Below are positions 3,675 to 52,031 of a stretch of 64,000 bases of DNA, piece after piece. Below the pieces are notes generated by a model, which was not told the DNA's origin, did no database searches, and was given only the letters and a program-made list of their open reading frames with translations. The DNA lies in assembly GCA_028711705.1 (NCBI GenBank), contig JAQTRS010000003.1, forward strand, positions 109,966 through 173,965. Direction: 5' to 3'. The position numbers and the translations under genes were made by a program. This DNA comes from Candidatus Moraniibacteriota bacterium (GTDB taxonomy: Bacteria > Patescibacteriota > Minisyncoccia > Moranbacterales > UBA1568). Each line of letters opens with the position of its first letter. Positions within the stretch are counted from its first letter, which is position 1.

Positions 3675-4586
3675 ATGGTTATGATGATACGGAAGTTTTT
3701 TGCTTCTCAAAAAGCGTATAGCGTCGTGTTTGCCAGCTTCGTTTTTTTGAGCTTTCTTTTTATGCCGAACGCGACAGATGCTGCCGGTCTTGTGCCCTGC
3801 GGAACGGACAATAATTCGCCGTGCACCCTCTGCCATTTGGTCGTCGGTATAAAGAGTCTGATCGATTGGGGATTCGGCGTGATGACATTTTTCGCTATTG
3901 CGGTTATCGTGGCGATGGGTATCGTCTATATCGTGTCAGCGGGAAATCCTTCCATGACGACGACGGCGAAGAATGGCATCAAGGCTGCTTTGATCGGATT
4001 CCTTATCATGCTCGGCAGTTGGGTGATCGTGAATTTTTTCATGCTGACGCTCGCCAATAACGGTGTGGGCCGTGCGACCAGCTGGAACACGTTCACCTGC
4101 GATACGGCCACGAAGACACAACAGATCAATCAGACGCCAGCTACGCCGGGCTCTGTGACCGGTGGCACATTGTCGTGCACGACCGGTACCTGCGCCACCA
4201 ATTCGCAAGTTTCGGCAGCGGTGCGCAATAATGCATCCGGCCTGAATCCGAATATCCTGATGTCTATCATTGACGGTGGAGAAGGATGTAATAAAGCGAG
4301 TTCACCAGCGGGGGCTTGCGGGTATTCCCAGGTGATGCCGGCGTATAGGAAAAGCGTCTGCGGTCTGACGGGAACCGATGCGGATACATGCGCGGCGATG
4401 CAGAACGATCTGCAATTGGATATCAATTGCGGGGCGAAGTTTATCGCGACCGACTTCGCGGTGAGGTGCGGACCGAGCATTACCACTATCGCATCGTGCT
4501 ATAACACGGGAAATAGAAATAATTGTGGAGAGGGAAGTCCTCCCTATTGCCAGCGCGTAACGAGTTATTATAATTCATGTCCATAG
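3675..4586 (+). CDS. VirB2/TrbC-like pilin domain fused to SLT-type lytic transglycosylase domain
   Basis: N-terminus: signal peptide plus a two-helix hairpin with YIVSAGNPSMTTTAKNGIKAALIGFLIMLGSWVIV, the same fold and motif as downstream pilin paralogs. C-terminus: EGCNKASSPAGACGYSQVMPAY, which closely matches the SLT catalytic-core motif ES...SPAGAxGLMQLMP. Confidence 0.6.
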   Translation: MVMMIRKFFASQKAYSVVFASFVFLSFLFMPNATDAAGLVPCGTDNNSPCTLCHLVVGIKSLIDWGFGVMTFFAIAVIVAMGIVYIVSAGNPSMTTTAKNGIKAALIGFLIMLGSWVIVNFFMLTLANNGVGRATSWNTFTCDTATKTQQINQTPATPGSVTGGTLSCTTGTCATNSQVSAAVRNNASGLNPNILMSIIDGGEGCNKASSPAGACGYSQVMPAYRKSVCGLTGTDADTCAAMQNDLQLDINCGAKFIATDFAVRCGPSITTIASCYNTGNRNNCGEGSPPYCQRVTSYYNSCP

Positions 4587-4605
4587 CATCCTTGTTATCA
4601 ATCCT

Positions 4606-5295
4606 ATGAAAACATTACTCTTTATCCTCCTTGGCGTATTCTGCTTGAGCGCTCCTGCCCAGGCCGATGTCTTCGAATTACATTTTTCATATGATGCCAA
4701 GCAAAACACCCTCAATTTTACTGACAATCAAGACGCCGTGACGGTGAATAAGGAGAAGGATATCTCGATCGTCGAATTTTCCAAAAGCCCTTCTTCGGGT
4801 GATTTCGAATTCGCATTCATCGATGCGACCGGTTTTGAAATAGAGCGCAAAAATTTCACGCCGAAAGCCGGAAACTTCGTTGTGGAGACGCCGTATTACA
4901 GCATCGCGACCAAACTTATCGTACGTAAAATAGGTGTGGCCGAACCGATCCTTACCCGTGACATCAGCGCCTTGTCTACCTGCAATAACAATAAGATATG
5001 CGAATTCGAGAAAGGCGAGACCATCAACACCTGTCTTCCGGATTGCGGTTCCAGCAATGTGACCTATAGCGCGGAGACCAAAACGAAGCTTGAATCCTCC
5101 AACAATATCGTACGTGATGAGAAGACGGGATCCATCTTGCTGAACAATGTCAAAGTGGCAGCACCGCAACCTGAAGCGCAACTGCAAACCCCGCAGCCGA
5201 CCGCCGGTATGTCCGCAACCATGGTGGCGATTCTGAGTGCCATCGCCTTGCTAGTTTTGGGAGGCATAGGATATTTCGTTTATAAAAAGTGGTAG
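4606..5295 (+). CDS. secreted protein with C-terminal TM anchor (hypothetical)
   Basis: Signal peptide MKTLLFILLGVFCLSAPAQA, a Cys-containing beta-rich body, and a C-terminal TM helix with a KKW tail. It lies within the pilin array. Confidence 0.5.
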   Translation: MKTLLFILLGVFCLSAPAQADVFELHFSYDAKQNTLNFTDNQDAVTVNKEKDISIVEFSKSPSSGDFEFAFIDATGFEIERKNFTPKAGNFVVETPYYSIATKLIVRKIGVAEPILTRDISALSTCNNNKICEFEKGETINTCLPDCGSSNVTYSAETKTKLESSNNIVRDEKTGSILLNNVKVAAPQPEAQLQTPQPTAGMSATMVAILSAIALLVLGGIGYFVYKKW

Positions 5296-5304
5296 CACTA
5301 GGAC

Positions 5305-5583
5305 TTGTTTATGTTCATAGAAAGAGCGCAAGCGGGGGGAGTGATAGATAATGCACCGACATTTTCGGAGGTCTTTCTTAATGCGTTCATTTTTTTGTTG
5401 CAAGTCGCAGGTATCATTGGTATAATCGGAGTAGTTCTTGCCGGTGTGCTGTATCTCTTTGCCAATGGTGATTCCCGGCGCATCCGTGCTGCAAAAAATA
5501 TGCTGATAGCCATCGTGATCGGCTTCGCCATCCTTTTCGGAGCCTGGATAATCGTACAGGCCGTGAGCAGCTTTTTTTCATAG
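5305..5583 (+). CDS. minimal VirB2/TrbC-like pilin
   Basis: 92 aa consisting essentially of two hydrophobic helices separated by the loop LYLFANGDSRRIRAAKNML. This is the same core as the other paralogs (YLxSAGD...K). The start codon is uncertain. Confidence 0.45.
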   Translation: MFMFIERAQAGGVIDNAPTFSEVFLNAFIFLLQVAGIIGIIGVVLAGVLYLFANGDSRRIRAAKNMLIAIVIGFAILFGAWIIVQAVSSFFS

Positions 5584-5701
5584 GACTCACGTGCTTGGCG
5601 CATTTTTTATTGCCTTGACCGCTTGCAAAGACAATCGAAACGGCCCCAAGCACGTGTGTCTTTATAAAAATAAAAAAATAAAAGGAAAGGAGGTGAGTAA
5701 T

Positions 5702-6100
5702 ATGAAAATATCAGTAAAACATATAGCTTCGTTTACATTAGTGCTCGCTATCTTGGTGTTGCCCCAAGTTGTTTTTGGCGCAACTATCGGTCAGCAAGGA
5801 GGATGGACACAGGGTCTGACGAATGGAACAACAGGAGGTGTCTCCCAGCAGACCCCGACTACCATCGTTACCAACATCATCAACTACGCACTGGCTATCA
5901 TCGGTTTCTTGGGCGTCTTAGGATTCATCATCTCGGGTATCATGTATTTGGTATCGGCAGGTGATGAGGCTATGGCCGAGAAAGCGAAAAACAACATGGT
6001 CTACGCCATCATCGGTGTGATCGTCGCACTGTTGGGATATGTCGTTATGGCCGCTATCAGCACATTATTGTCTGCCGGTGGTGCCAACAACGGACTTTAA
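5702..6100 (+). CDS. VirB2/TrbC-like pilin paralog
   Basis: RBS aaaggaaaggagg, then ATG at 5702 (the ORF-track start at 5591 is upstream of the RBS). Signal peptide MKISVKHIASFTLVLAILVLPQVVFG, a Gly/Thr-rich variable segment, and a conserved C-terminal hairpin IISGIMYLVSAGDEAMAEKAKNNMVYAIIGVIV. Confidence 0.65.
   Translation: MKISVKHIASFTLVLAILVLPQVVFGATIGQQGGWTQGLTNGTTGGVSQQTPTTIVTNIINYALAIIGFLGVLGFIISGIMYLVSAGDEAMAEKAKNNMVYAIIGVIVALLGYVVMAAISTLLSAGGANNGL
5870..6096 (+). repeat. 227-bp segment 100% identical to 6375-6601 (3' half of pilin gene)
   Basis: By-eye comparison shows the nucleotide strings from accaacatcatcaactacgc to caacaacggact are identical in the two adjacent genes. Confidence 0.85.
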
Positions 6101-6123
6101 TCCTCAAGACAGATCAAACAAAA

Positions 6124-6154
6124 AACAGTCTCGCTATCCCGAGATTGTTTTTTG
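6124..6154 (+). terminator. rho-independent terminator
   Basis: Hairpin aacagtctcg / ctatcc / cgagattgtt, followed by a T7 run. Confidence 0.65.
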
Positions 6155-6183
6155 TTTACGCTTCCGCATTTTTTTGGTATAGT
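6155..6183 (+). promoter_or_regulatory. sigma70-like promoter (TTTACG - 17 - TGgTATAGT) for the next pilin gene
   Basis: Extended -10 tggtatagt at 6175-6183; -35 tttacg at 6155-6160; 17-bp spacer. The same module recurs at 6659-6687. Confidence 0.45.
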
Positions 6184-6221
6184 GAAAGAGTAAAAAACAA
6201 AAAGGAAAGGAGGTGTGTCTT

Positions 6222-6605
6222 ATGAAAATAACCGTAAAAAACATTGCCTCATCGGTTTTGCTACTCGTCATCATGGCTGTGCCTCAGGTTGCCTTCGGTC
6301 AGTGGGATATGGGTCAAAACCAGTCGGCAGCGACAGCCTTCGGCGTCTCGACCTCGACCCCTACCGATATCCTGACCAACATCATCAACTACGCACTGGC
6401 TATCATCGGTTTCTTGGGCGTCTTAGGATTCATCATCTCGGGTATCATGTATTTGGTATCGGCAGGTGATGAGGCTATGGCCGAGAAAGCGAAAAACAAC
6501 ATGGTCTACGCCATCATCGGTGTGATCGTCGCACTGTTGGGATATGTCGTTATGGCCGCTATCAGCACATTATTGTCTGCCGGTGGTGCCAACAACGGAC
6601 TGTAG
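6222..6605 (+). CDS. VirB2/TrbC-like pilin paralog
   Basis: RBS aaaggaaaggagg, then ATG at 6222. Signal peptide MKITVKNIASSVLLLVIMAVPQVAFG. The variable middle differs from the 5702 gene, but the C-terminal 76 aa are identical to it. Confidence 0.65.
   Translation: MKITVKNIASSVLLLVIMAVPQVAFGQWDMGQNQSAATAFGVSTSTPTDILTNIINYALAIIGFLGVLGFIISGIMYLVSAGDEAMAEKAKNNMVYAIIGVIVALLGYVVMAAISTLLSAGGANNGL
6375..6601 (+). repeat. second copy of 227-bp perfect repeat
   Basis: Identical to 5870-6096. Confidence 0.85.
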
Positions 6606-6630
6606 ACGAAGACGGTTCTCATGCAAAACA

Positions 6631-6660
6631 ACCCTGCTACAGGCCGGGTTGTTTTTTGTT
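6631..6660 (+). terminator. rho-independent terminator
   Basis: Hairpin aacaaccc...gggttgtt, followed by a T-run. Same architecture as the 6124-6154 terminator. Confidence 0.6.
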
Positions 6661-6687
6661 TACGCTTTTACATTTTCTTGGTATAGT
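6659..6687 (+). promoter_or_regulatory. duplicated sigma70-like promoter module (TTTACG - 17 - TGgTATAGT)
   Basis: -35 tttacg at 6659-6664; -10 tatagt at 6682-6687, preceded by TGg. The sequence gtttacgc...ttggtatagtgaaa is nearly identical to 6152-6186. Confidence 0.45.
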
Positions 6688-6736
6688 GAAATAAGTTAAG
6701 CGCACGTGGTAAATTTTAAGCAATGAAAATAAAAAT

Positions 6737-7201
6737 ATGTCCACACACCTGAAGAGCCTGATGTTTCCTTTGGTGATGATCGCGGTATTGTTTGCTCCCT
6801 TCGTCTCTTTTGCGGAGGTCTGCGGTGGCGGCACTATCGGAGGAAGCACCGGCGGAGGTATTTATGCTGGCGGTACCCTGGGGGTGGGCAGCGGCGCTTG
6901 TGGTGCCTTCGGCGGCTTGTCTTTGTGGGGCCCGACGCCGTTCGGTCTTCCTGGCGGAAGCATTTTCGGTATCGTTGCGACGGTGGTTGATTGGCTCTTG
7001 GCGCTTTTCGGCATCCTGGGCATTTTAGGCTTCATCATTTCAGGTATCATGTATCTGCTTTCAGCAGGGGATGAGAAGACGGCCGATAAGGCCAAAGCAG
7101 GACTCAAATACTCTATCATCGGTATTGTCGTCGGTCTGTCCGGTTTCGTCATTATGCAGGCGATTAACGGTCTTTTGAGCGGCATGGCAGGCGCATACTA
7201 G
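6737..7201 (+). CDS. VirB2/TrbC-like pilin paralog (Gly-rich ectodomain)
   Basis: Signal peptide, a Gly-rich variable region (GGGTIGGSTGGGIYAGGTLGVGSG), and a C-terminal hairpin IISGIMYLLSAGDEKTADKAKAGLKYSIIGIVVG. Confidence 0.6.
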   Translation: MSTHLKSLMFPLVMIAVLFAPFVSFAEVCGGGTIGGSTGGGIYAGGTLGVGSGACGAFGGLSLWGPTPFGLPGGSIFGIVATVVDWLLALFGILGILGFIISGIMYLLSAGDEKTADKAKAGLKYSIIGIVVGLSGFVIMQAINGLLSGMAGAY

Positions 7202-7242
7202 TGTCTTGCAGAGTAAATAGGATATAACTTTACACAAAACAT

Positions 7243-7887
7243 ATGTCGGTCACTCGAGAAAAAGCTGCATTCTTCAATCAGAGTCTCAAGGCCCTTCTAT
7301 TCGCTATCGTCGTTGCCGGTATATCGGTGGTATTTGAGCCCGTTTCTGCGGCGCCGGCTTACTGCACCTCGTCCGCAGCGCTCTATCAATGCGTGGCCCC
7401 GGGAACAAATTGCGCTTCCCTTGGATCCACCATGGTGGGTGATTCGGCCTGCGACACTGCCTGCAACGGAGGTTGGAAGTATTGCGGTTCGCAAGCACCG
7501 ACACCGCCGCCAACAGCCGCTCCTGCATCAGCGACGGGTGTCAGTTCGGCTGCAGCAGCAGGAGGGGCGACGTGCGGTGCAGGATTTTCGGCGACGGCAG
7601 GCGTGTGCTTCCCGACCGATACGGGACTTCCGGATCCTGCCGATGGTATCGCGCAGATTTTGGGAAACTTCTTCAGTTGGCTGCTGATTATCTTTGGTTT
7701 CTTGGCTGTTGGAGCCTTCGTTATTTCCGGTATACAGTACCTTGTCTCCGCCGGGGATGAGGATATGGCTAAGACGGCGAAGCGCAATATGAAATGGTCT
7801 ATCATCGGTGTGATTGTCGGGCTTTCGGGCTGGATTATCATGCAGGCCGTCGCCAATGCCCTCACCGCGCAGACGTCGATCTTCTAG
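7243..7887 (+). CDS. VirB2/TrbC-like pilin paralog (Cys-rich ectodomain)
   Basis: Signal/TM segment, an ectodomain with about 9 Cys residues, a Pro/Ala/Thr linker, and a C-terminal hairpin VISGIQYLVSAGDEDMAKTAKRNMKWSIIGVIVG. Confidence 0.6.
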   Translation: MSVTREKAAFFNQSLKALLFAIVVAGISVVFEPVSAAPAYCTSSAALYQCVAPGTNCASLGSTMVGDSACDTACNGGWKYCGSQAPTPPPTAAPASATGVSSAAAAGGATCGAGFSATAGVCFPTDTGLPDPADGIAQILGNFFSWLLIIFGFLAVGAFVISGIQYLVSAGDEDMAKTAKRNMKWSIIGVIVGLSGWIIMQAVANALTAQTSIF

Positions 7888-7923
7888 CGATGCGATATAA
7901 ACATATTTTTTAAAACAGCGACT

Positions 7924-8850
7924 ATGGTAACAAGCACCTGGCAAACATTTCTTCATAAGCGAAGCGCGACATTCTTATTGGCAGTCATGGTTATTGCTAG
8001 CGGATTTGTTGGCAATACGCAAGAAGCGCAGGCTGCGATAACCAAGGCTGCCTGTGAGGCACTCGGCACCGGATACAGCTGTTTGGCGGCGAGTGATCCT
8101 GCTGCTGCCGGACGAGAGAGTGTTGATCAGTGCAATATGAACACCGGGTTTCCTATAGTGACCGGGAACTGCTATAAGCCCTTGCCGCCGCCAAGCAATA
8201 CCGGACCAGGAACAACTACAGGTTCAGGAAGCAACACGGGACCAGGAACGTCTACGGGCCCTGGTAGTAATACTAGTCCGGGAACAACTACGGGAACAAC
8301 AACTGGAACCACCGCGACTGGAACCGGTGTTACCACCATATCCTTTCAGAATCCCTTGCAGTACAATACCGTACAAGATGTGCTAGGAAGCCTACTCACC
8401 ACGCTTCAGGGCATCATCGTGATCCTGTGCATCATCTTCATCATCATCGGCGCCATCCTCTACATCACCTCTGCCGGCGATAGCAAGCGGACGTCCGCCG
8501 GGAAGCTCGCCATCACCGCCGCCCTCATCGGATTGGCCATCGCCATCGCTGCTCCGTCATTCCTCAAGGAAATCTCGAATATCCTCGGATGGAACAATAC
8601 CCCTGCCAATGTGAGCGCTTCGCTTTCGATCTCGGCCATCCTTACCAATGTGCTCAACTTCCTTTTGGGCATCGTGGGTATCATCGCGATCATCATGCTC
8701 GTCATCGGTGCTATCATGTACCTTTCGGCGGCGGGGGATGAAGACCGTATCGATACCGGTAAGAGTATTGTGAAGTATTCCATTATCGGCATTATTATCG
8801 CTTTCTCAGCCTTGCTTCTCGTCAAGCAAGTCGCCACGTTTTTCCTATAA
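7924..8850 (+). CDS. pilin paralog with two tandem VirB2/TrbC-like hairpin domains
   Basis: Cys-containing N-terminal domain, a low-complexity linker (GPGTTTGSGSNTGPGTSTGPGSNTSPGTTTGTTTGTTATGTG), and then two successive pilin cores (ILYITSAGDSKRTSAGKLAI... and IMYLSAAGDEDRIDTGKSIVKYSIIG...). Confidence 0.6.
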   Translation: MVTSTWQTFLHKRSATFLLAVMVIASGFVGNTQEAQAAITKAACEALGTGYSCLAASDPAAAGRESVDQCNMNTGFPIVTGNCYKPLPPPSNTGPGTTTGSGSNTGPGTSTGPGSNTSPGTTTGTTTGTTATGTGVTTISFQNPLQYNTVQDVLGSLLTTLQGIIVILCIIFIIIGAILYITSAGDSKRTSAGKLAITAALIGLAIAIAAPSFLKEISNILGWNNTPANVSASLSISAILTNVLNFLLGIVGIIAIIMLVIGAIMYLSAAGDEDRIDTGKSIVKYSIIGIIIAFSALLLVKQVATFFL

Positions 8851-8988: not shown

Positions 8989-9873
8989 TTAACTACATTT
9001 GAACAGAGTTGCTTTCATTGTGCTATCTGTGCTTGTATAGTTGTCCGGATGTTGAAATACATTGATATCAAGATAGAGTTTCGTATCGTCTTGATCGAGT
9101 TTGAATCTATAGTTTGATCCGGCGTATACCATCTTGGCATTCTTTTGGAGCGTTACACCGCCGTAAGGTTTTGATTTGAACATAGCGGCGTCTGTAACCC
9201 ACTGCTTAACCGGTGATTCATCCAGTAGATTGCCGTCTGCGTCCACGGTACGAGAATAACTTACCTTTCCATTTACCAGAAACCATTGTTTTCTGGTCCC
9301 TTTAACTTTCAGGAGATACTCTCCCGGACCTGCTGTTGCCAGCAATGGTTTTTTGATAAATGTTTCAGTGCCTGGCGAAAAGGATAGCGTTGATATTTCC
9401 TCGGTACAAGCGGAAACGTTTTTCTCGGCAGTTTTTTTAGACAATACTGCCTTCCCATCGTTTGCTGCGACTACAATTTTTGATTCCGGTTGTATAGCCG
9501 CATCCATTTGTTTGGCGCTGCTTGCGACCGGTGTCGATGATACGCTTGGTTGCCCGAGTTTTTCATTGACTATATTTAGTCCAGGAACGAACCAATGGTA
9601 GTTGAAATAGAAAAACACGCTTGTTCCTACCAGAATCAATACTGCTCCAAGACTGAGCGCCTTCGGTTTGGTAAAGAAAATGATATAGATCATCAATGCC
9701 GCTACCCCGAAAGGAAAGAGCATCCACCAATTGAATTCTTGTGCAAGCTCAGTGTTTGGGTTTGCGACAGGTGCTTGATTGACGGAATCGCTACCCCCGG
9801 TAATATTTGCGAGAACCGTAACAATTATCAGAAATATAATGATTCCCACCACTACTTTTATCTTTGTGCCCAT
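8989..9873 (-). CDS. membrane protein (3 predicted TM helices + C-terminal beta-rich domain), hypothetical
   Basis: 294 aa with N-terminal hydrophobic helices and no recognised catalytic motif. It is immediately downstream of, and probably co-transcribed with, the SPFH gene. Confidence 0.5.
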   Translation of the reverse strand: MGTKIKVVVGIIIFLIIVTVLANITGGSDSVNQAPVANPNTELAQEFNWWMLFPFGVAALMIYIIFFTKPKALSLGAVLILVGTSVFFYFNYHWFVPGLNIVNEKLGQPSVSSTPVASSAKQMDAAIQPESKIVVAANDGKAVLSKKTAEKNVSACTEEISTLSFSPGTETFIKKPLLATAGPGEYLLKVKGTRKQWFLVNGKVSYSRTVDADGNLLDESPVKQWVTDAAMFKSKPYGGVTLQKNAKMVYAGSNYRFKLDQDDTKLYLDINVFQHPDNYTSTDSTMKATLFKCS

Positions 9874-9881
9874 AATTCCTC

Positions 9882-10850
9882 CTATTTTTCATTGGTGATG
9901 TTGCCAGCAAGCGCGCCGGCTTTTTCAAGCGGACTAGCGTTGCCATCTATGGTGATGGCTTGCCTTTTACCGCGTTCGGCTTGCACGATGGTTGCAATTT
10001 GCGCATCTGAGAGATTTGGAAAACTCTCCTTGTATCGCTTCATCTGCTTTATCACAGTTTCCGTCTCTTTGCTCTCTGCTTCTTGTTGTGCGTATTCTAC
10101 ACGAACGTTTGCGCGAGCTGCCTCCAATTCCACAGGAAGACGTACGGTAGTGATACGCACCCGGTTGAGCTTGATGCCCCACTCGGTCAGTGCGTGATTC
10201 TGAATGCCTTCAACCGCGAATTCTTCAAGCTCTTGCACTTCTTCTGCGCCGGAGGCTGGAACTCCGGGTATGCCTTCGCCAGTAAGTGTCCCGTTAATGA
10301 GAACATGTACAATGCCTACTTTCGAACGCGGAACCACTTCAGAGTTCAATTTTGAAACGATGAGGCGAAGGATTCCATCAACACCTTGTTTATAAAGATC
10401 CTCAGCGCCGGTCGCTCCAAGATATCTTTGCGGATCCACTACCTGCACCTCGGAGGACAAATCAATCTTTATCGGGACATCGTCCTTTGAAAGAATCTCA
10501 GTTACCTCCTGATCAATACTCCTTTTCTTCGCATCAACCTCTTGTATATTTCCAAAAGGTTTTGGCCAATACCAAACCAAACCTTCCGTAAGGACTTTTC
10601 CAGCCACCCTTTTTCCTAAAAATAAGGGTACGGCGGTAAATCCAATCTGTACCGTTCGTAGGCCTTCCCAGCCAAAGTACCATATTGACGCAGCAGCGCC
10701 AACTGATCCGAATACGGAGTATGCCCACCAAGATCCCTGCGGCGTAACCAGTGTCGCTACCCATGCCATGAGCATATAGCTAATGGCTGCTAGAATTACA
10801 TTCCATACGATTCCATGCACCCAATTGTTAGTTGGTCTCATTTTAATCAC
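9882..10850 (-). CDS. SPFH/band-7 (stomatin/HflC-like) domain protein
   Basis: N-terminal TM, then an SPFH-like core (IQEVDAKKRSIDQEVTEILSKDDVPIKIDLSSEVQVVDPQRY...) and a coiled-coil C-terminus rich in E/A/Q. Confidence 0.75.
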   Translation of the reverse strand: MIKMRPTNNWVHGIVWNVILAAISYMLMAWVATLVTPQGSWWAYSVFGSVGAAASIWYFGWEGLRTVQIGFTAVPLFLGKRVAGKVLTEGLVWYWPKPFGNIQEVDAKKRSIDQEVTEILSKDDVPIKIDLSSEVQVVDPQRYLGATGAEDLYKQGVDGILRLIVSKLNSEVVPRSKVGIVHVLINGTLTGEGIPGVPASGAEEVQELEEFAVEGIQNHALTEWGIKLNRVRITTVRLPVELEAARANVRVEYAQQEAESKETETVIKQMKRYKESFPNLSDAQIATIVQAERGKRQAITIDGNASPLEKAGALAGNITNEK

Positions 10851-28459: not shown

Positions 28460-30175
28460 ATGCCAGAACAACAACCATCGGAAGAACTTATACCGGACGA
28501 GGTACTGTACCAGTTATTGCTTGAGACAGGATCGGTACCGCAGGCATCGCTTGATGTCGCCGCGCAGCGTGCTAAGGAGGAGCATACTTCTTTGTATGAG
28601 GCTATTTTATGGCATGATTTCGTGTCCGATGAGAAACTCTGCCGATTGGCGGCCGATTTTTTGCAGATGCCCTTCGTGCTGCTTGCGGGAATCGCCATCG
28701 AGGAAGATGTCTTGCGAACGATTCCGGAAGTGGTTGCCAAGAAAAACGCCATCATCGTTTTTCGGAAAGATACGGATGGCTTGCATATCGCGACCAAGCA
28801 GCCAGATAATGTTCAGATTATCGATTTTATACGAAGAAAGACAGGGATGTCCGTTACAGTGTATCTTTCGATGTCCCAAGATATAGCGAACGCACTCCTT
28901 TTATACGGAAAAAATATCACCAAAGCATTTGACGATATTATACACGAGAGTCTACTTGATGCGAAAGGGTCGTCGAGCGATCAGAATGCGTTGCCTATCA
29001 TCAAGATAGTAGACAATATCCTCTCGTATGCGTATCAGAACAAGTCCTCTGACGTGCATATCGAACCGCGAGAAGAAGGGTCTTTGGTGCGCTTTCGTAT
29101 CGATGGCATCTTGCATGATATCGTTACGCTTCCGCTTGAGATCCATCCGCAGATCGTGTCGCGCATAAAAGTGCTAGCAAAGCTCCGTACGGATGAACAT
29201 CAGGCGCCTCATGATGGCAAGATCCGTTTTGAATCGGAGGGTGAAGCTTTGGACATCCGTGTGTCGGTGGTGCCGGTAACGGAAGGGGAGAAAATAGTGA
29301 TGCGCCTCCTCTCGGAGCGTTCGCGTCAGTTTTCTTTGTCCAATCTCGGTTTCGGATCGAGCGATTTGGCTAAGGTGAACGAAGCCTATAACAAGCCATA
29401 CGGAACTATCCTGGTTACCGGACCGACCGGTTGTGGAAAGACTACTACGTTGTACTCCATATTGAAGCTTCTTAATAATCGCAAGGTGAATATAATGACC
29501 ATCGAGGATCCGGTGGAATATGATATGGAAGGCGTCAATCAGATTCAGGTGAATACTAAGGCGAATCTTACGTTTGCGACCGGATTGCGGAGTATTCTCC
29601 GTCAGGATCCCAACATCATTTTGGTGGGTGAAATACGTGACAAAGAAACGGCTGGTATCGCGATCAATCTGGCTATGACCGGACACCTCGTACTTTCTAC
29701 GCTGCACACCAATGATTCGGCGACAGCGGTTCCTCGTATGATCGATATGGATATCGAACCATTCCTACTCTCTTCGACTATCAATGTCATTGTCGCCCAG
29801 CGTCTCGTGAGAAAGATTCATGATGCTTGCCGTGTCAGCGAAGAGGTTTCTATTGAAGATCTGAACCAACGCTTGGGAGCTGCGCTCGTACATGAAGTAT
29901 TCGGTGATGCGAGCGAGTCTGGCAAAAGTGTGCGTCTGTACAGAGGAAAAGGATGCGATTTGTGCCATCAGACAGGATATCAGGGGCGCATCGGCGTGTT
30001 TGAGGTTATGACTATTGATGATAAGTTGCGCACCGCTATCACGAATCGCAAGGATGCGGCGACTATTGCCGATATCGCTATCGCTTCCGGGATGACGACG
30101 ATGCTTGAGGATGGTTTGGAGAAGGTAAAGCAAGGGATAACGACTTTGGATGAGGTGTTGAGGGTTATCAAATAG
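28460..30175 (+). CDS. pilB: type IV pilus assembly ATPase PilB (GspE family)
   Basis: N-terminal GspII_E domain, Walker A GPTGCGKTTT, His box, Walker B/Asp box and a tetracysteine-like motif (CDLCHQTG). 571 aa. Confidence 0.9.
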   Translation: MPEQQPSEELIPDEVLYQLLLETGSVPQASLDVAAQRAKEEHTSLYEAILWHDFVSDEKLCRLAADFLQMPFVLLAGIAIEEDVLRTIPEVVAKKNAIIVFRKDTDGLHIATKQPDNVQIIDFIRRKTGMSVTVYLSMSQDIANALLLYGKNITKAFDDIIHESLLDAKGSSSDQNALPIIKIVDNILSYAYQNKSSDVHIEPREEGSLVRFRIDGILHDIVTLPLEIHPQIVSRIKVLAKLRTDEHQAPHDGKIRFESEGEALDIRVSVVPVTEGEKIVMRLLSERSRQFSLSNLGFGSSDLAKVNEAYNKPYGTILVTGPTGCGKTTTLYSILKLLNNRKVNIMTIEDPVEYDMEGVNQIQVNTKANLTFATGLRSILRQDPNIILVGEIRDKETAGIAINLAMTGHLVLSTLHTNDSATAVPRMIDMDIEPFLLSSTINVIVAQRLVRKIHDACRVSEEVSIEDLNQRLGAALVHEVFGDASESGKSVRLYRGKGCDLCHQTGYQGRIGVFEVMTIDDKLRTAITNRKDAATIADIAIASGMTTMLEDGLEKVKQGITTLDEVLRVIK

Positions 30176-30286: not shown

Positions 30287-31345
30287 ATGACTCTTTTTTC
30301 GCGGGCGAGTTTTTTGGATATCTTGTTGTTTACAAAACACCTTTCGGTGATGGTAAAGAGCGGCATTACAGTAGCCGAGTCAGTCAAATCCCTCAAGCAT
30401 CAGGCGAAAACAGGCGCTTTCAAAAGGATTCTCGATCAAGTATCGGCCGACATCGAAAACGGCGATCCTCTCGCGAAGGCACTTGCGAAGTATCCTCAGG
30501 CTTTCAGTCATTTCTATATCAATCTTATCGCTATCGGTGAAGAGTCGGGAGTGCTTCAGGAGAATTTGGATTTCCTGTCCAAGCAGTTGAGCAAGGAATA
30601 CGCGCTTCGAAAGAAAGTACAGGGCGTGCTCCTGTATCCGGCGATCGTGCTGACGGCCGCCTTTGTGATCAGCGCCCTGGTGAGCATCTTCGTTTTGCCG
30701 AAACTTGTGAATCTTTTTGAGTCTTTCGATGTCGTTTTGCCGTTATCGACGCGTATCCTCCTATCCATCGCTCATGTCATGCAATCGCATGGAGTGATCA
30801 TATTCGTAACGATTCTTGCGGCGAGCATTTTTTTTCGGGTTTTGGCTTTCGTGCCACAGATCAGAAAATGGTATCACTGGTTATTTTTGAGTATGCCGAT
30901 TATCGGGCCATTCCTGCGAAATGTATACATTTCTTCCTCGTGTCGTGATTTGGGAATGATGCTTCAGGCGGGATTATCGATCACTCGTGCGCTGCGAGTG
31001 GAGTATGACACGATAAACAATCTCGTATTCAAGGAATATGTGAAGAGTTTGCAACTTTCTATAGCAAGGGGCGGGACTTTGTCGGGCGAATTATTGACGG
31101 GGAATTTTTCGAAGATACCGCCTTTGGTTTCGAAAATGATTGAGGTCGGAGAAGGGACCGGAAAACTCGAAGAATCGCTTCTATATCTGGGGGATTTCTT
31201 CGAAGAGGAGATTGATAATACATCGAAGAATTTTTCCACTGTTTTGGAACCGATCTTGCTTTTATGTATCGGATTGGTGGTCGCATTTGTCGCGTTGGCG
31301 ATCATATCGCCGATTTATTCATTGACGGGATCTGTCCATAGGTAA
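30287..31345 (+). CDS. pilC: type IV pilus inner-membrane platform protein PilC (GspF family)
   Basis: Two GspF-type repeats and three TM segments. 352 aa. Confidence 0.85.
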   Translation: MTLFSRASFLDILLFTKHLSVMVKSGITVAESVKSLKHQAKTGAFKRILDQVSADIENGDPLAKALAKYPQAFSHFYINLIAIGEESGVLQENLDFLSKQLSKEYALRKKVQGVLLYPAIVLTAAFVISALVSIFVLPKLVNLFESFDVVLPLSTRILLSIAHVMQSHGVIIFVTILAASIFFRVLAFVPQIRKWYHWLFLSMPIIGPFLRNVYISSSCRDLGMMLQAGLSITRALRVEYDTINNLVFKEYVKSLQLSIARGGTLSGELLTGNFSKIPPLVSKMIEVGEGTGKLEESLLYLGDFFEEEIDNTSKNFSTVLEPILLLCIGLVVAFVALAIISPIYSLTGSVHR

Positions 31346-42195: not shown

Positions 42196-45100
42196 ATGAA
42201 GGAGGAAAATCATACAAAAATGAAGAACACATATCGATTCCGGTTTCTGGCATTTCTCGCTATCTTTTTAGTGGTTGGTTTTTTTGTTTCTACTCAGGAG
42301 TATTCGTTTGCGGCGACCGGTACGAACAAGAAAATAAATTTTCAAGGAAAGGTGGTCAATAGCAACGGAACTAATGTTGCTAACGGATCATACGGCTTTA
42401 TTTTCAGCATTTATACCGTTTCAAGCGGTGGCGCGAATGTGTGGACGGAAAGCAAATCCCTGACCGTGACCGACGGTATTTTCCAGACTGACTTAGGGGA
42501 TGTTACTACGCTTCCAGGATCTATCGACTTCAATACGGACAACATTTACCTTGGTATCAATTTCAACGGTGATGGCGAGATGTCGCCACGTGTGCAATTC
42601 GATGCCGTTCCTCAGGCATTCAACGCTCAGAAAGTAGCAGGACTTACAGTAACCGACACGACGGGCACACTGACGATTCCGAATGGTAAAACCATTTCTT
42701 TCGCGGATACTTTTTCAACTTCCGGTGCTTTCGCAACGACGCTTACTGCAACCGGAACAACCACTGTGACGCTTCCGACCACCGGGACACTTGCGACGTT
42801 ATCAGGCAGTGAGATTTTGAACAACAAAACCATCGGAAGCGCAGGCCTTATTTTTTCGGGAGCGGCTACGGATATCACGACTACTTCTGGAGAATCATTG
42901 GTGATTGTTGCGGCCGGTGCAGGAACGGTAGATATTCAGGACGCCACTACCGTTGACTCGCTTACCGCGGATACGGGGGGTATTTCTATTGCCGCCGGTC
43001 AATCGTATACGGGTTCGGGCGCGGTGACGCTTTCATCAGGAGGTGCTGCCGGTCTGACGATCGATTCTGCATCAGATGTGCTTACAGTGGCCACGGGAGA
43101 CTATCTTGCACTGAGTCATTCCGGCGTTGCGAGCGCCGCGGCAGGATATATCTGGTATGATTCGGGGGATAATAAATTCAAGATCAACGAAAACGGTACG
43201 ACCAAGACGTTATGTAATCTTACAGACGGTGGCTGCGGATCGGGTGGCGCGAGCGATCTGCAGACAACGTATGGTAATGATGCTGATGGATCGAATGCTA
43301 CGATTTCACTGACGGCTGCCGATGATGGTTTGGTCTTCACTAATCCGACCTCCGGTGGTACGGATGCGAGCTCTTTCCTTGCTTATTTCAACCAGCAGAA
43401 TACGACGGCCGCTGTATCGGCAGTCGATATTACTCAGGCTTCCAATGCTTCCAATGCGGTCAATATTACAGCCAATGCTATCGATGGCGAGATAGGACTT
43501 GATATCACGGCTAACGGTCTGACGTCGGGTAAGGGTATAGATGTCTCGTCATCATCGACTGCATTTACAGGCAATCTTTCCAATATATCTTTGACAGGAT
43601 CCAGTGCTGCTAATACCGGTAATGTGCTTGCGGTGTCAAATACTGGTACGGCGAATGCTAACACCTCGTTTTTTATCAATCATCAGGCAACTGGAACTGG
43701 CAATCTCGCTATGCGCGTGGATGATCAATCAAGTGATGCGACGCCGTTCGTTATCGATGGCAATGGCAATGTCGGCATCCAAACGAGTGCGCCTACAGAT
43801 GCTCTTCAGGTGGGAAGTGCGACGAATCGTGCCAATATGACAGCTTATGGTGATATTACGGCGGAAGGATATGATGTCCAACGCAGTCTGGCCGGCATCA
43901 TTGATATCTTTGTGTATGATACGACGCGTGATGCGGATGGCGGGGAATGGCGCAACTCGATCATTTCACAGCAGATGTCTTGGGCGACGGAAACCAAAGA
44001 TGATGGTATCGGCGATGCTTGCGATATCGCAGCTGATGATCGCTGCGGCAAGTCGATTTTTCCTCGTAAGGCGATTATAGCTACTACAGCGAGCGGCCTG
44101 TATATTTTTGATGGTGCGGACAATTCGCTATGGATGAAGTTTACCCAAGCAGGTACGTATGCTTTGGGTGCAGATACGAATAATAACCCGACAGGAGTGG
44201 GTGCGCAGAATGGTGTCATAGTAGTCGGAACCAATGGCACATCGGCTACCGGTATGTACGCTTTCGATTTTAAGCAGGATGCGATGTATCGTTATGATGC
44301 AACGAATCGCGTGCAGGGTGATAAAAATATCGGCAATCGAAATTCGACGGTGTCCTACGCGACCAATGCGAATACAAATTTTGCTCTTGTGAACTCGGTT
44401 GTTAATGATGTTTCGATCGCACTCATCACTTCATCGACTGAAGGTATGATCAACACGTTGACGCTACCATTAGATAGCGCAACAAGTCCGATGCGAGGCG
44501 TGACGCTTATTGCTGCAGCGACGGATACGGGGGTTTCCGTCGTCAATACTGCCAATCAAAGAGTGTTTAGTTATTCGGAAACGACAAACGATGACTATAA
44601 TCAGGTTGTCATCACAAGCCGTGGAAGGATGTATGCGACCAATGAGACCCAGCAGCAATTAGAAGAATGGAGAAATATCGATAGGGATGTGGCATCGGAA
44701 CTCAACGGAAACCCGGATCGATTCTATGATCAGACTGTCGGACGATCACCTATTACAACAGGAACGGCACCGACTATTTCCACTTCGCCCGGAACCCTTG
44801 CCGTTATCGAACGAAACTCAGCTGCTCGCGAATCAGCTGCTACAACCCTTCTTGAGACTGGTGATATCGTTTTTGTCGGTACGGATCAGGGTTTGGCCGA
44901 AGTGCATACTTCGGGAGGAAGCCTTGTTGGCGCCGCATGGTCCAAAATAACAACTTCGACGGTAGCGACTCCGTATATGGTCGGCGCTGCACGCTCAGTC
45001 TATCTTTTTGAGGAGGCTGCCGGTTCGACGGTCGCAGCAAGTTCTATCGGTGCGGCCGGTACGACCAATAACCCACTTAGATCAGCAGTGACAGGAACTG

Positions 45101-47970
45101 CCCCGACATTTGGTGGCGACGGTATTCGGGGAGTGAGTGTCAATTTCAATAACAATTCTTATTTATGTTCAGACGCGAACTCGGATGGTACGTGTGATGC
45201 GGATGCTGACTTCAATGCTGGTACGGTGAGTTTCACCGTTTCTTTATGGTTCAAGCATTCGACTACGGCAGCAGCCGATACGTTGTTCGAACGATGTTAT
45301 ACTCCCGTGGCGGCAACAGCGGCCGTCGGGTGTATATATGCCGGAATGCATACGACCGGGCAGATCCGTTTCGCTATCGATAGCCTTACGACGTGGACGT
45401 ATAACACTACCTATGATGACACTATTCTTTCGACTGCAACCTATAATGATAACCAATGGCATCATGCTGTGTTCACTAATACTGACACGGATATCTGTAT
45501 GTATATCGATGGGAAGCAGGCAGTAGCGTGCGACAGCACTATTGCAGCTACCGCGACAATGGATGCTTCGCAGGTATTGACGGTCGGAGGGTCGTGTGCT
45601 GGCGCGAACTGTGTGACGGGTGCGAACTTTTGGGATGGATCGATTGATGAGCTCGTGTGGAGTTCGAACGGTGGTACGACAAATGATGGATTAGCAGCGC
45701 AAAGCGCCAACAAACTTTATTTGGATGGTCGGGCCCACATGATACGGCCTTCTGATACGGTGGTTGATGCCACAACTTTTTCATCGACTACTATAGGGGA
45801 TTCCGCAGAAAATTATGTTCCAGGGTCGTTCGTGGGACTGGTTGTGGAGTTGAACGGTGGAACCGGCGCCGGACAAACGAGAACGATTATTTCTAACGAT
45901 GCGACTACCTTTACTGTGTATCCGGCATTCACGACTGTGCCCGATGCTACGACTGACTATCAGGTAAGTCCCGCGAAGCTGTATGGAGTGAACGGGGTTA
46001 CGGCTATTTCAGCGGATATGCCGACCAATCTCAACAAGATCCGCAAGGTCTATGTGGGAACGAGTAATGGATCGGATGGCGGAGGCATCAGTGTCTTTAC
46101 CAATGCCGGCGCTGGTTCAATTAAGACGGATGTGATTCATTCGGATGCCGGTTATCCAGCGGATGATTTCGGTTCGACGTGGTCAGGAACAGATGCTGAC
46201 GATATTAGCGCTATCGCTTCCTATTCCGATACGGTAGCCTTCGGTTCTGGTGCATTTTTGCGAGCGAAACGAAATGAAGTCAGTTTGAAGCAGCTTCAGT
46301 TAGATACTATAGGAGGGCTTGAAGATATTCGTCAAGAATTGGTCTCCAAACAGCTCTTCGGATCGACTCAGGACGTACTTGGTTTGGGTCAGGGAGCCGA
46401 CCTTGCAGAGCGTTATTATTCTGATGAATCTCTGATGGCGGGCACTATCATTTCTATAGATCCATCGCTTGATAATGGCGTTAAAAAGTCGACAGGGGCG
46501 TATCAGAAAGATATGCTCGGCGTTGTTGCTACCAAGCCAGGAATCACTTTGGGATCGGTACAAGATAACGCTTATCCTGTGGCTCTTGTTGGACGAGTGC
46601 CTGTTCTTGTGACGAATGAATCGGGGCAGATCTATGCAGGGGATAGGATAACTTCTTCTTCGGTTCCAGGCTATGGTATGCTTGCTATCAAAGCGGGGAG
46701 AGTGGCCGGAACCGTACTCGAGGATGCTTCGGGTTGGGATACCTGTCCTGCCGGAGTGATCACCGATGGACGAAATATCAAGTGCACAAGCGTGATGGTT
46801 TTTGTCAATCTTACGGATTATAACGGTCGATCGATCGATGTCGCGATGAAAGAGCACGCTCAGCAGCAAGCTCTTACCGGTGGCAATATCGATGGTTTGC
46901 AAGTGGACGGGTCAGTGGATACCGCGGTTCTTCCTGGCGACGAGGCTAATACCAATGGCGTCATCACTATTCTCAATACAGCTAGCAATGATCAGGATTT
47001 TTCGAGGCAGCAGCAAATACTATCCTTTTTGAATGATCTTAAAGAGGAACAAGCGAAATTTTCGCAGCAATCATCGGAGATATTTACCGATCAATTGTAT
47101 GCTGCGGACGGCGTCGTTACCCCGCAGTTGGTTGCAGATCTTATCATCGCCAAGCATATCAAGGCGGATTCGATAGAAGGTTTGGAGGTGTTTACGGATA
47201 AAATCGGCAGTCTTTCCGATCGCATCACGAATCAGGACAAGGACGTGACGACGCAGCAGCTTACGGCCGGAGATGCTGAAATCGGTTCATTGGCACTCGA
47301 AAGCGCGAAGGTGTCGATGAATATGGATGTCGCCGGCAAGCTTAAGGTGGGAGGCTTGATTGTCAGTGACAGTGCCACATTCAAGAATGATACTTTGTTC
47401 AATAAACTCGTTTCATTTATCGGAAAGGTTGTCTTCAAGAGCGATGTCGCTTTTGAAAAAACACCGACCTTTGGTAAGGATACGGCCGGATTCGCCAAGA
47501 TTGCCAAGGGTGCCGATCGGGTGGAAATCGTGTTTGGAACCGTGTATGAGAGGACGCCGATCGTGCAGGCGATGATGGTTTTCGATGATGAAAAGGCACT
47601 CGATACCGATGCGTCCGATGCGAATTCGGGCAATGATTCCGCGCCAGCCGTTTCCGGAGCGTCTTCTTCCAAAGAAAAAGATACGATCCAAAGACAATTG
47701 CTTGCCAAAAACTATTCGTACTTCGTGGTCAATCGAACTAAAAAGGGCTTCACCATCATTCTCAATAAACCGGCCGATGAAGACCTTGATTTTTCTTGGG
47801 TAGCTATCGCCGTGGCTGACGCGCAGACATTTGAAAGCAAAAAACCTGAACCTGTCGCAGACCCATCGGTTTCGATTCCTGCGATCACTCCTACGGTTTC
47901 GGAAAAAACTAGTATTCCTTTGATCACAGCGCCTACGACATCTCCTACGCCTATCGCGCCGACTTTGTAA
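42196..47970 (+). CDS. giant secreted protein (1924 aa) with LamG/concanavalin-A-like lectin domain and Thr/Gly-rich beta-repeat regions
   Basis: Signal peptide (FLAFLAIFLVVGFFVSTQEYSFAATG). Long T/G/A/S-rich repeats. LamG-like block (VSLWFKHSTT...NQWHHAVFT...DGSIDELVWSS). The likely start is ATG 42220 (MKNTYRF) after the AGGAGG. Confidence 0.75.
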   Translation: MKEENHTKMKNTYRFRFLAFLAIFLVVGFFVSTQEYSFAATGTNKKINFQGKVVNSNGTNVANGSYGFIFSIYTVSSGGANVWTESKSLTVTDGIFQTDLGDVTTLPGSIDFNTDNIYLGINFNGDGEMSPRVQFDAVPQAFNAQKVAGLTVTDTTGTLTIPNGKTISFADTFSTSGAFATTLTATGTTTVTLPTTGTLATLSGSEILNNKTIGSAGLIFSGAATDITTTSGESLVIVAAGAGTVDIQDATTVDSLTADTGGISIAAGQSYTGSGAVTLSSGGAAGLTIDSASDVLTVATGDYLALSHSGVASAAAGYIWYDSGDNKFKINENGTTKTLCNLTDGGCGSGGASDLQTTYGNDADGSNATISLTAADDGLVFTNPTSGGTDASSFLAYFNQQNTTAAVSAVDITQASNASNAVNITANAIDGEIGLDITANGLTSGKGIDVSSSSTAFTGNLSNISLTGSSAANTGNVLAVSNTGTANANTSFFINHQATGTGNLAMRVDDQSSDATPFVIDGNGNVGIQTSAPTDALQVGSATNRANMTAYGDITAEGYDVQRSLAGIIDIFVYDTTRDADGGEWRNSIISQQMSWATETKDDGIGDACDIAADDRCGKSIFPRKAIIATTASGLYIFDGADNSLWMKFTQAGTYALGADTNNNPTGVGAQNGVIVVGTNGTSATGMYAFDFKQDAMYRYDATNRVQGDKNIGNRNSTVSYATNANTNFALVNSVVNDVSIALITSSTEGMINTLTLPLDSATSPMRGVTLIAAATDTGVSVVNTANQRVFSYSETTNDDYNQVVITSRGRMYATNETQQQLEEWRNIDRDVASELNGNPDRFYDQTVGRSPITTGTAPTISTSPGTLAVIERNSAARESAATTLLETGDIVFVGTDQGLAEVHTSGGSLVGAAWSKITTSTVATPYMVGAARSVYLFEEAAGSTVAASSIGAAGTTNNPLRSAVTGTAPTFGGDGIRGVSVNFNNNSYLCSDANSDGTCDADADFNAGTVSFTVSLWFKHSTTAAADTLFERCYTPVAATAAVGCIYAGMHTTGQIRFAIDSLTTWTYNTTYDDTILSTATYNDNQWHHAVFTNTDTDICMYIDGKQAVACDSTIAATATMDASQVLTVGGSCAGANCVTGANFWDGSIDELVWSSNGGTTNDGLAAQSANKLYLDGRAHMIRPSDTVVDATTFSSTTIGDSAENYVPGSFVGLVVELNGGTGAGQTRTIISNDATTFTVYPAFTTVPDATTDYQVSPAKLYGVNGVTAISADMPTNLNKIRKVYVGTSNGSDGGGISVFTNAGAGSIKTDVIHSDAGYPADDFGSTWSGTDADDISAIASYSDTVAFGSGAFLRAKRNEVSLKQLQLDTIGGLEDIRQELVSKQLFGSTQDVLGLGQGADLAERYYSDESLMAGTIISIDPSLDNGVKKSTGAYQKDMLGVVATKPGITLGSVQDNAYPVALVGRVPVLVTNESGQIYAGDRITSSSVPGYGMLAIKAGRVAGTVLEDASGWDTCPAGVITDGRNIKCTSVMVFVNLTDYNGRSIDVAMKEHAQQQALTGGNIDGLQVDGSVDTAVLPGDEANTNGVITILNTASNDQDFSRQQQILSFLNDLKEEQAKFSQQSSEIFTDQLYAADGVVTPQLVADLIIAKHIKADSIEGLEVFTDKIGSLSDRITNQDKDVTTQQLTAGDAEIGSLALESAKVSMNMDVAGKLKVGGLIVSDSATFKNDTLFNKLVSFIGKVVFKSDVAFEKTPTFGKDTAGFAKIAKGADRVEIVFGTVYERTPIVQAMMVFDDEKALDTDASDANSGNDSAPAVSGASSSKEKDTIQRQLLAKNYSYFVVNRTKKGFTIILNKPADEDLDFSWVAIAVADAQTFESKKPEPVADPSVSIPAITPTVSEKTSIPLITAPTTSPTPIAPTL

Positions 47971-48001
47971 ATAAAATGTTTTGGAGGTATACTATAGACA
48001 T

Positions 48002-48478
48002 ATGAATAAACGTTTGCGTCATACATCACACGGATTCACACTGATTGAACTTTTACTTGTTATTGGAATTATCGCCGTACTTGCGGTAGTGGTTTTCGTG
48101 GCGCTTGATCCTGCGAAACGATTTGTGGATGCTCGAAATTCGAGACGGGTTTCCGATGCGCAGTTCATTCTCACCGCGGTACGCCAGTACGTGATCGACA
48201 ATGGTAGTACACTACCGACTGGTCTTGATACAATCGAGAAACAGCTCGGAACAGGCGTCTCAGGGTGTAGTCTTACGTACGGAGTCTGCAGCGCCAATAC
48301 GAATTATTGCCTTGATATGTCAAGCGATTTGGCGAAATATCTCAAGTCTTTGCCATTCGATCCGAAAGAGGGAACGTCCGTGAAAACTCACTATACGATT
48401 CAAGTCGATAGCAACAATATTATCACGGTACGCGCCTGCGATGCTGAAAACAATGAGGAAATAGTCGTTTCAGGTTAA
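48002..48478 (+). CDS. type IV pilin paralog
   Basis: HG-FTLIELLLVIGIIAVLAVVVFVALDPAKRFVDARNSRR is nearly identical to the N-terminus of the 34725 pilin. Conserved Cys pair. RBS ggagg upstream. Confidence 0.75.
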   Translation: MNKRLRHTSHGFTLIELLLVIGIIAVLAVVVFVALDPAKRFVDARNSRRVSDAQFILTAVRQYVIDNGSTLPTGLDTIEKQLGTGVSGCSLTYGVCSANTNYCLDMSSDLAKYLKSLPFDPKEGTSVKTHYTIQVDSNNIITVRACDAENNEEIVVSG

Positions 48479-50511: not shown

Positions 50512-50556
50512 AAACGGGTGACCTCTCCATGGAGGATTCATCCGTTTTATTTTCTC
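50512..50556 (+). terminator. rho-independent terminator
   Basis: Hairpin aaacgggtgacctctccatggaggattcatccgttt, followed by tattttctc. Confidence 0.6.
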
Positions 50557-50694
50557 TTATATGCCGATGAAGCGAGATCTGTTTGGAACATTTCTATAGT
50601 GTAAATTCTAGAGTTACACCTTGTGAAATGTCTCAGTCGGAAGTATCTTCGGCGGCAGCAAAAACAAAAATAAATAATACGTAAATATAAATAT

Positions 50695-50892: not shown

Positions 50893-50935
50893 TATAAACG
50901 AAGCTGTCTGTTTTCAGAATCAAAATTGAATACTA

Positions 50936-50963
50936 AAAACCTACCCTTTCGGGTAGGTTTTTT
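50936..50963. terminator. bidirectional rho-independent terminator (for + strand small ORF and minus-strand tRNA-Gly)
   Basis: aaaacctaccc / tttc / gggtaggtttttt, with A-tract and T-tract flanks. Confidence 0.6.
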
Positions 50964-50968
50964 ATGTG

Positions 50969-52019: not shown

Positions 52020-52031
52020 AAACAAAAAACT

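Follow-up and report, generated by a model that had tools for sequence, protein, structure and literature searches.

Why would a patescibacterium keep a row of seven VirB2/TrbC-like pilin genes where no ATPase gene of a type IV secretion system (T4SS) accompanies them? The question is raised by a stretch of 64,000 nucleotides from Candidatus Moraniibacteriota bacterium (contig JAQTRS010000003.1, positions 109,966 to 173,965 of the forward strand; here termed the window), in which a preliminary description made from the sequence alone had pointed out such an array at 3675-8850 and had compared it to a surface-variation locus. Our analysis leads to a different answer. With a probability of about 0.6, we consider the array to be the form that the patescibacterial VirB2-like pilin array takes in Moraniibacteriota: an operon on the chromosome, inherited vertically, whose products would be subunits with differentiated roles for a T4SS encoded elsewhere.

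Domain layout and family of the seven pilins

A Pfam scan of the open reading frames (ORFs) placed the products of seven + strand genes at or above the gathering score of PF18895 (T4SS_pilin; 26.6 bits). The first of them, G1 (3675-4586), scores 26.6 bits, exactly at this threshold. It is followed by the minimal pilin G3 (5305-5583; 92 aa, 34.2 bits), the mid-size pilins G4 (5702-6100; 39.4 bits) and G5 (6222-6605; 39.3 bits), G6 with a Gly-rich ectodomain (6737-7201; 33.7 bits), G7 with a Cys-rich ectodomain, a GVC[FI]P motif and the core sequence ISGIQYL (7243-7887; 48.8 bits), and G8 (7924-8850; 74.5 bits in two stretches). G8 is a tandem double pilin, which brings the array to eight pilin domains in seven genes. 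For G4 the listed ORF opens at a GTG at 5591, and the ATG at 5702 is preceded by a GGAGG ribosome-binding site. The number and the strand of the genes are as first described, but they are not strictly consecutive: between the first two pilin genes lies a non-pilin + strand gene, X (4606-5295), whose 229-aa product has a predicted signal peptide, a domain in which Cys residues are conserved and a membrane anchor at its C terminus (hydrophobic segments at residues 3-23 and 198-227). Searches of Pfam, NCBIfam and PHROG returned no match for X, and homologues occupy the equivalent position in just six of the other loci compared below.

The loop motif reported for the array was recovered in an alignment of all seven proteins as Y-[LI]-x-[SA]-[AN]-G-[DN]-x5-[AG]-K, with Y, G and K invariant, and hydropathy places one hydrophobic helix on either side of the loop in each protein. 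In G8 this unit is present twice, giving four helices. A hairpin is therefore found in every protein, as had been proposed, but not at the end of every protein, since that of G1 lies at residues ~60-128 and is followed by a lytic domain. An N-terminal, signal-peptide-like hydrophobic segment is found by hydropathy in five of the seven; the leader of G8 falls under the threshold, and G3 has a short leader only and no classical signal peptide. The earlier characterization of the N-terminal regions agrees with their composition: G6 contains 21% Gly, G1 and G7 contain 16 and 8 Cys, respectively, G8 has a Thr/Gly-rich low-complexity stretch, G3 is the minimal form, and G1 is the protein fused to an SLT-type domain. 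In G8, Cys-containing and Thr/Gly low-complexity regions precede the four transmembrane helices, which are modelled by AlphaFold2 (AF2) as four long helices with a predicted local distance difference test (pLDDT) score of 82-92. Identity between the pilin domains of the window paralogues is 25-51%, except for G4 and G5 at 81%. Exact database matches exist for G1, which is 100% identical to MDD5083927.1 ('pilin [Candidatus Moranbacteria bacterium]'), and likewise for G8 in NCBI.

Membership of these proteins in a VirB2/TrbC-related superfamily, as originally suggested, is supported by profile matches. The TrbC profile PF04956 (gathering score 27.9 bits), which had been proposed as a check, is passed by G8 at 37.8 bits; G3 stays below it at 22.5 bits, and the other five have no match. 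The NCBIfam profile NF045849 (Mbov_0395 family; cutoff 40 bits) scores 47.4 bits with G8 and 38.7 bits with G7, and only G8 passes. This result hints that monoderm-type T4SS have a related hairpin protein, which bears on the origin of the patescibacterial pilins. The Mbov_0395 protein of the Mycoplasma integrative and conjugative element (ICE) would be a related small hairpin protein of a monoderm-type T4SS, but it is single-copy and encoded on the ICE beside transfer genes, and the other six window pilins remain under the cutoff of its family. No similarity to the pilin profile was detectable in pSK41 TrsB (assigned to the 'CagC family') or in pCF10 PrgF and PrgG.

VirB2-like pilins in a monoderm are an odd feature of the patescibacterial T4SS, a secretion system that is essential for epibiotic life in the one species tested. 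In Southlakia epibionticum, a series of predicted pilins is likewise essential and is located inside the T4SS cluster (Wang et al. 2023, PMC10633639). Strain ML1 resembles the organism studied here in being a monoderm patescibacterium that has type IV pili and, in addition, several VirB2-like pilins alike in structure but divergent in sequence. Across Patescibacteria, VirB2-like pilins were reported from 1,948 assemblies, in 1,135 of them near virB4, and 441 arrays of 2-11 pilins were counted (Quinonero-Coronel et al. 2025, PMC12102498). The window array resembles those arrays in consisting of PF18895/VirB2-type genes of low identity, in tandem or with one non-pilin gene between them, and in being chromosomal and without a relaxase; the seven genes and X fall under the array definition used there (at least two pilins, in tandem or one gene apart, low identity). 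It differs from them in several respects. The published work stresses Microgenomatia and Saccharimonadia, whereas here the array lies far from virB4, keeps a fixed order across Moraniibacteriota, begins with a fusion of a pilin to a lytic-transglycosylase domain (G1) and ends with a tandem double pilin. A 2025 FEMS review highlights the pilin array together with the idea of a pilus in a monoderm (PMC12857230). Pilin arrays, their co-occurrence with type IV pili and speculation on host adaptation are thus already published (PMC10633639, PMC12102498, PMC12857230). The new details are the fixed Moraniibacteriota order, the pilin-transglycosylase fusion, the tandem pilin, the separation from virB4 and a 227-nt identical core shared by G4 and G5.

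Gene order across Moraniibacteriota

We compared the array with four syntenic loci obtained by exact look-up, one of them in the complete genome CP064974.1, and with 77 loci from a scan of species-representative genomes; nearly all of the latter belong to Moraniibacteriota/Moranbacteria and include the complete genome CP064994.1. According to a local hidden Markov model of the pilin, almost every locus contains 3-9 pilin genes on one strand. When each pilin of a relative was assigned to the best-matching window paralogue in the 81 loci, a recurring order emerged: a G1-type fusion, a minimal pilin of ~90 aa, one to four mid-size pilins, a G7-type pilin (ISGIQYL, GVC[FI]P) and, last, a tandem G8-type pilin. 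At least one pilin was assigned to G7 in 71 of the 81 loci and to G8 in 66, the last gene usually being a double-domain pilin. Orthologues of G3 with ~90 aa occupy the same slot in most loci, and N-terminal motifs are common to positional orthologues. The surroundings recur as well, with a gene for an ABC substrate-binding protein upstream in 41 fetched loci and nusA downstream in 42. A fixed order with one-to-one positional orthologues in about 80 loci indicates that the paralogues are old and differentiated and that the locus is vertically inherited, which argues against a fast-switching variation locus.

Moraniibacteriota-type arrays and synteny are also carried by many metagenome-assembled genomes deposited as third-party annotation under the title 'uncultured Bdellovibrionales bacterium' (found among the loci numbered L006-L080 in our set). 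These titles are probably wrong.

What does change between species is the ectodomain. Relative to the closest relative, ectodomains are 37-42% identical and cores 66-81%, and lengths range between species from 113 to 487 aa for G7, from 188 to 768 aa for G8 and from 136 to 829 aa for G1. This faster change is between-species divergence and not a switching mechanism. The comparison across relatives called for in the preliminary description yielded conserved positional orthologues.

A sign of recombination is seen in G4 and G5 alone. A run of 227 nt is 100% identical between the pilin core of G4 (5870-6096) and that of G5 (6375-6601), while the ectodomain-coding DNA immediately 5' of it shows ~50% identity in a base-by-base comparison and differs in length, making G5 a mosaic duplicate of G4. 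Orthologues of G5, whose mature N terminus likewise begins with QW, are present in L002, L003 and L004. The syntenic array of the closest relative (L007) has one gene of the G4/G5 kind, and on another contig of the same relative a lone G5-like cassette including its upstream region (L006, 9939-10368) corresponds to window positions 6161-6589; it adjoins a MarR-like gene and pyruvate formate lyase. This arrangement suggests that a cassette moved and then underwent gene conversion, the sole putative recombination event in the array. The duplicates are also surrounded by similar + strand consensus matches. A terminator-like hairpin at 6116-6157 follows G4 and a promoter-like site, TTTACG-17-TATAGT, lies at 6155-6183; a different hairpin at 6629-6646 follows G5, and the same promoter-like site occurs again at 6659-6687 inside a 43-nt repeat (6649-6691). 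Farther upstream, between the minimal pilin G3 and G4, an imperfect hairpin with 43-nt arms that are 74% complementary (5574-5670) might act as a terminator or as a regulatory RNA structure.

It is on G4 and G5, on the G5-like cassette found elsewhere in the genome of the closest relative and on the divergence of ectodomains ahead of cores that the original comparison to a surface-variation locus could draw. The paralogues would then be alternatives, and the exposed pilin would be varied by differential expression or by recombination among the copies; the literature draws the same analogy to Bartonella and Anaplasma in suggesting adaptation to host strains (PMC12102498). Those T4SS do have multiple divergent VirB2 copies in a row that are proposed to vary the exposed surface. 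Their copies, however, have been linked to evasion of the immune system of animal hosts and are located with or near T4SS genes, whereas the types found here are distinct and orthologous across species. Not only the ectodomains but also the cores of the window paralogues differ, at the identities of 25-51% given above, as expected of subunits that have become differentiated, not of variants that could replace one another. A truncated or promoterless form is not apparent in any of the seven genes, and G4 and G5 have clear ribosome-binding sites. Silent or promoterless cassettes, a recombinase and invertible repeats, as in systems of the Neisseria pilE/pilS or invertible-promoter type, were not found in the array or among its neighbours, nor were long inverted repeats flanking a promoter. 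In view of these results and of the gene order and one-to-one orthology kept across about 80 species-level loci, we regard a variation locus as improbable. That the pilins of one large order form an operon with a conserved sequence of genes, apart from the ATPase genes and with a pilin-anchored transglycosylase and a tandem pilin, argues instead for differentiated subunits.

The transglycosylase-like domain of the first pilin

G1 opens the array with an unusual layout, in which a signal peptide, a conserved Cys motif (GLVPCG...CTLCH) and the pilin hairpin are followed by a linker and a lytic-transglycosylase-like domain at residues ~165-303. An AF2 model based on 42 sequences has a mean pLDDT of 81, and residues ~165-303 lie above 90. 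When this C-terminal domain was submitted to Foldseek, the ten best PDB matches were all lytic transglycosylases (probability 0.91-1.00, E values 0.03-0.7), among them Slt, Slt70, MltF, Cj0843 and MltD. The catalytic Glu (position 202 or 203) is present in 41 of the 42 G1 homologues, Q219 in 40 and N277 in 38, and the motifs G-x-x-Q (G-L-M-Q-like) and Y-N-x-G (A-Y-N-x-G-like) are conserved among them. The window G1 itself scores 11.5 bits (E = 0.23) with the SLT profile PF01464, under the gathering score of 21.3 bits. Orthologues in L004 (34.1 bits) and L038 (23.4 bits) exceed this score, 13 homologues have a precomputed PF01464 match, and the PHROG family 'lytic tail fiber' matches the G1 domain with E = 6e-6. 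In the model, the C terminus of G1 has a lytic-transglycosylase (goose-lysozyme-like) fold, which would sit outside the membrane. Since it comes after the second helix, the domain would face the wall, a topology consistent with a VirB1-like function on a pilin hairpin. No description of a pilin-transglycosylase fusion was found in the searchable literature.

This fusion departs from known systems in which similar components are separate. The pilin genes of S. epibionticum are part of the T4SS cluster and adjoin virB4, which is followed by separate genes for a peptidase and a lysozyme (PMC10633639), whereas here the pilins form an operon of their own and one of them carries the wall-cutting domain. 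Agrobacterium VirB2 and RP4 TrbC are likewise signal-peptide-bearing two-helix hairpins with a short cytoplasmic loop, accompanied by a lytic transglycosylase. Their systems, by contrast, belong to diderms and have one pilin gene, within the virB operon in Agrobacterium, and VirB1 is a separate protein.

In other loci G1-type hairpins are joined to different domains. L038 (6133-8622) encodes a subtilase S8 and an SLT domain on a G1-type pilin hairpin, and L015 (6539-8653) a G1-type protein with InlB B-repeats. The G1-type pilins at L003 (11629-12768) and L004 (10001-11077) carry a non-SLT C-terminal domain of ~150 aa with a conserved HINGYKVDIR motif and no Pfam match; this domain may be another cell-wall hydrolase.

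Such fusions raise the question of whether the PF18895 hairpin is a subunit at all or an anchor that displays surface enzymes and binding domains such as the lytic transglycosylase, the protease and the Cys-rich and Gly-rich modules, in which case neither a filament nor a T4SS would be needed. The SLT, subtilase S8 and InlB B-repeat domains on the hairpins of G1 and its orthologues are what one would expect of an anchor, and so are the wide variation in ectodomain length between species and, as described below, the absence of virB4 from the flanks in about 80 loci and the presence of another pilin gene beside virB4 in some Moranbacteria listed in the accessible part of a published table. The short pilins G3 to G6, on the other hand, have almost no ectodomain to display, and the cytoplasmic-loop motif and both helices are conserved in the manner of a polymerising core. 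Moreover, the homologous array of S. epibionticum is inside a T4SS cluster and is essential (PMC10633639). A pure anchor function is unlikely in our view.

Secretion genes, proposed roles and surroundings

Where, then, is the machinery that the pilins would serve? Pfam searches with essentially all large ORFs of the window identified no VirB4, VirD4, VirB6 or relaxase, and the window scans found no integrase, coupling protein or recombinase. Among ORFs of at least 200 aa, the sole plausible nucleotide-binding protein with a Walker A motif is PilB (28460-30175); the other match to the pattern is inside a 1924-aa surface protein (42196-47970). In the related loci, flanks of up to 10 kb were examined by Pfam searches with representatives of recurrent large ORFs, by phmmer and by a Walker A screen, and no virB4 was detected in about 80 of them. 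The phmmer screen compared all pSK41 Trs proteins with every ORF of 84 sequences, including the window. Genes for mating-pair formation (VirB4, VirB6 and others) are hence absent from the window and from the flanks of the related loci over the distances covered.

Published tables locate such genes elsewhere. VirB4 is present in 13 of the 15 Moranbacteria assemblies in the accessible part of Table S1 of PMC12102498, and the accessible part of Table S3 lists four Moranbacteria genomes in which more than 20 coding sequences separate a VirB6-VirB3-TrsD-VirB4 cluster from the T_virB2 match. In Paceibacteria, virB4 tends toward the vicinity of dnaA/dnaN (PMC12102498). Closer spacing is on record as well. 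In GCA_000991325.1, labelled Moranbacteria, the pilin array is 14-18 genes from virB4 in the same part of Table S3, just beyond the flanks covered here, and a comparable spacing is therefore possible on the unseen upstream side of the window. The published list also seems to be incomplete where arrays are concerned. Five ORFs of the array in the Moranbacteria genome GW2011_GWF2_35_54 (L050, 809-3003) pass PF18895, and one VirB2 is given for it in the accessible part of Table S3. Arrays far from virB4 thus seem to be under-listed there, which suggests that the published counts of pilin arrays are too low for such arrays.

The spacing in GCA_000991325.1 (as far as Table S3 is accessible), together with an upstream view of only 3.7 kb, would allow the array to be part or a remnant of a conjugative element that continues just beyond the edge of the window. 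Its surroundings speak against this. The array has housekeeping flanks that are syntenic with CP064974.1, where the 10 kb upstream contain housekeeping genes only and no T4SS gene; the G+C content of the window is uniform (0.45-0.53); and in Patescibacteria relaxases are rare and T4SS chromosomal (PMC12102498). Together with the absence of relaxase, integrase, VirB4 and coupling-protein genes from the window scans, these results uphold the earlier judgement that the array is not a conjugation operon, and we give very little credence to a conjugative element.

We therefore return to an array of differentiated subunits for a T4SS encoded elsewhere, and several observations weigh against that assignment. 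To our knowledge, no pilus has been seen in any patescibacterium, and polymerisation is an extrapolation; we infer filament formation from homology and from the genetics of S. epibionticum. None of the solved VirB2, TraA and TrbC pilins was matched when the pilin profile was run against PDB sequences, and Foldseek returned generic helical bundles only for the G8 model, helical hairpins carrying little fold information. The 140-aa enzyme domain of G1 and the protease and adhesin-type repeats of its orthologues look more like parts of membrane-anchored proteins than of filament subunits. The promoter and terminator assignments around G4 and G5 are consensus matches, from which their function is deduced. 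With regard to VirB4, the evidence for this organism is the window, which extends 3.7 kb upstream and 55 kb downstream of the array; the earlier statement that no T4SS ATPase lies within 60 kb on either side is correct for the window but overstates the distance. Finally, in two of the four Moranbacteria genomes mentioned above, a separate PF18895 gene is given beside virB4 in the accessible part of Table S3 (PMC12102498). That gene could be the real T4SS pilin, leaving the remote array with another role.

With these points taken into account, the differentiated-subunit reading can be formulated as follows. The hairpins would be exported and taken up by a patescibacterial T4SS resembling Gram-positive (monoderm) machinery, with a VirB6-VirB3-TrsD-VirB4 core that would be encoded elsewhere on the chromosome, as in most Moranbacteria genomes covered by the accessible part of the published table. 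They would be built into a pilus-like or envelope-spanning structure for contact with a host cell. G1 might act in the VirB1 role, making local openings in the wall. The major subunits may be G4 and G5, which have strong ribosome-binding sites; downstream of each comes a terminator-like hairpin and then a promoter-like site ahead of the following gene. Minor, adaptor or tip positions may be taken by G3, G7 and the tandem G8. In such a structure the N-terminal ectodomains would be exposed on the outer face, and their divergence ahead of the cores may reflect a gradual evolutionary adjustment to the surfaces of hosts and not a programmed switch. In this form the locus supplies candidates for major as well as minor subunits and for the VirB1 function that had been missing, and it adds no new kind of system.

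A bolder proposal would be that the array is a self-contained pilus module, inherited vertically and uncoupled from virB4. Such a module would include a wall-cutting enzyme anchored by a pilin hairpin, specialised pilins in a fixed series and a pilin that is covalently tandem. In a monoderm it would form a T4SS-type filament as a heteropolymer whose base, shaft and tip subunits are distinct, or it would be assembled in the absence of VirB4. Neither has been described before for VirB2-family pilins; we consider the proposal doubtful.

The array is embedded in conserved chromosomal surroundings. Upstream neighbours are DUF4446, tRNA-Ser, a methyltransferase and the substrate-binding protein; downstream are nusA, a pyrophosphatase, tig and clpP, and Pfam matches across the window include NusA, trigger factor, ClpP, iPGM, RNase Y, ThrRS, DnaG and sigma-70 as well as two-component kinases. 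The separate type IV pilus operon described earlier near 28-35 kb was also found, with PilB (28460-30175), PilC (30287-31345) and N_methyl pilins.

Two convergent genes on the - strand follow the array at 8989-10850. One encodes a polytopic membrane protein without a family match, which has homologues in 17 other loci, and the other an SPFH/Band 7 protein. A 492-aa ORF on the - strand (50547-52025) is Arg/His-rich and of low complexity, has no family match and overlaps a tRNA-Gly and + strand ORFs; it is probably not a gene. The tRNA-Ser(CGA) upstream of the array is located at 1421-1508, and the 89 nt from 1420 to 1508 are 100% identical in L007, in surrounding DNA of ~72% identity. Downstream of the type IV pilus operon, at 42196-48478, the 1924-aa surface protein, which contains Laminin_G_3, is directly followed by an N_methyl (type IV pilin-like) gene; the Laminin_G_3 protein may be a pilus-associated adhesin.

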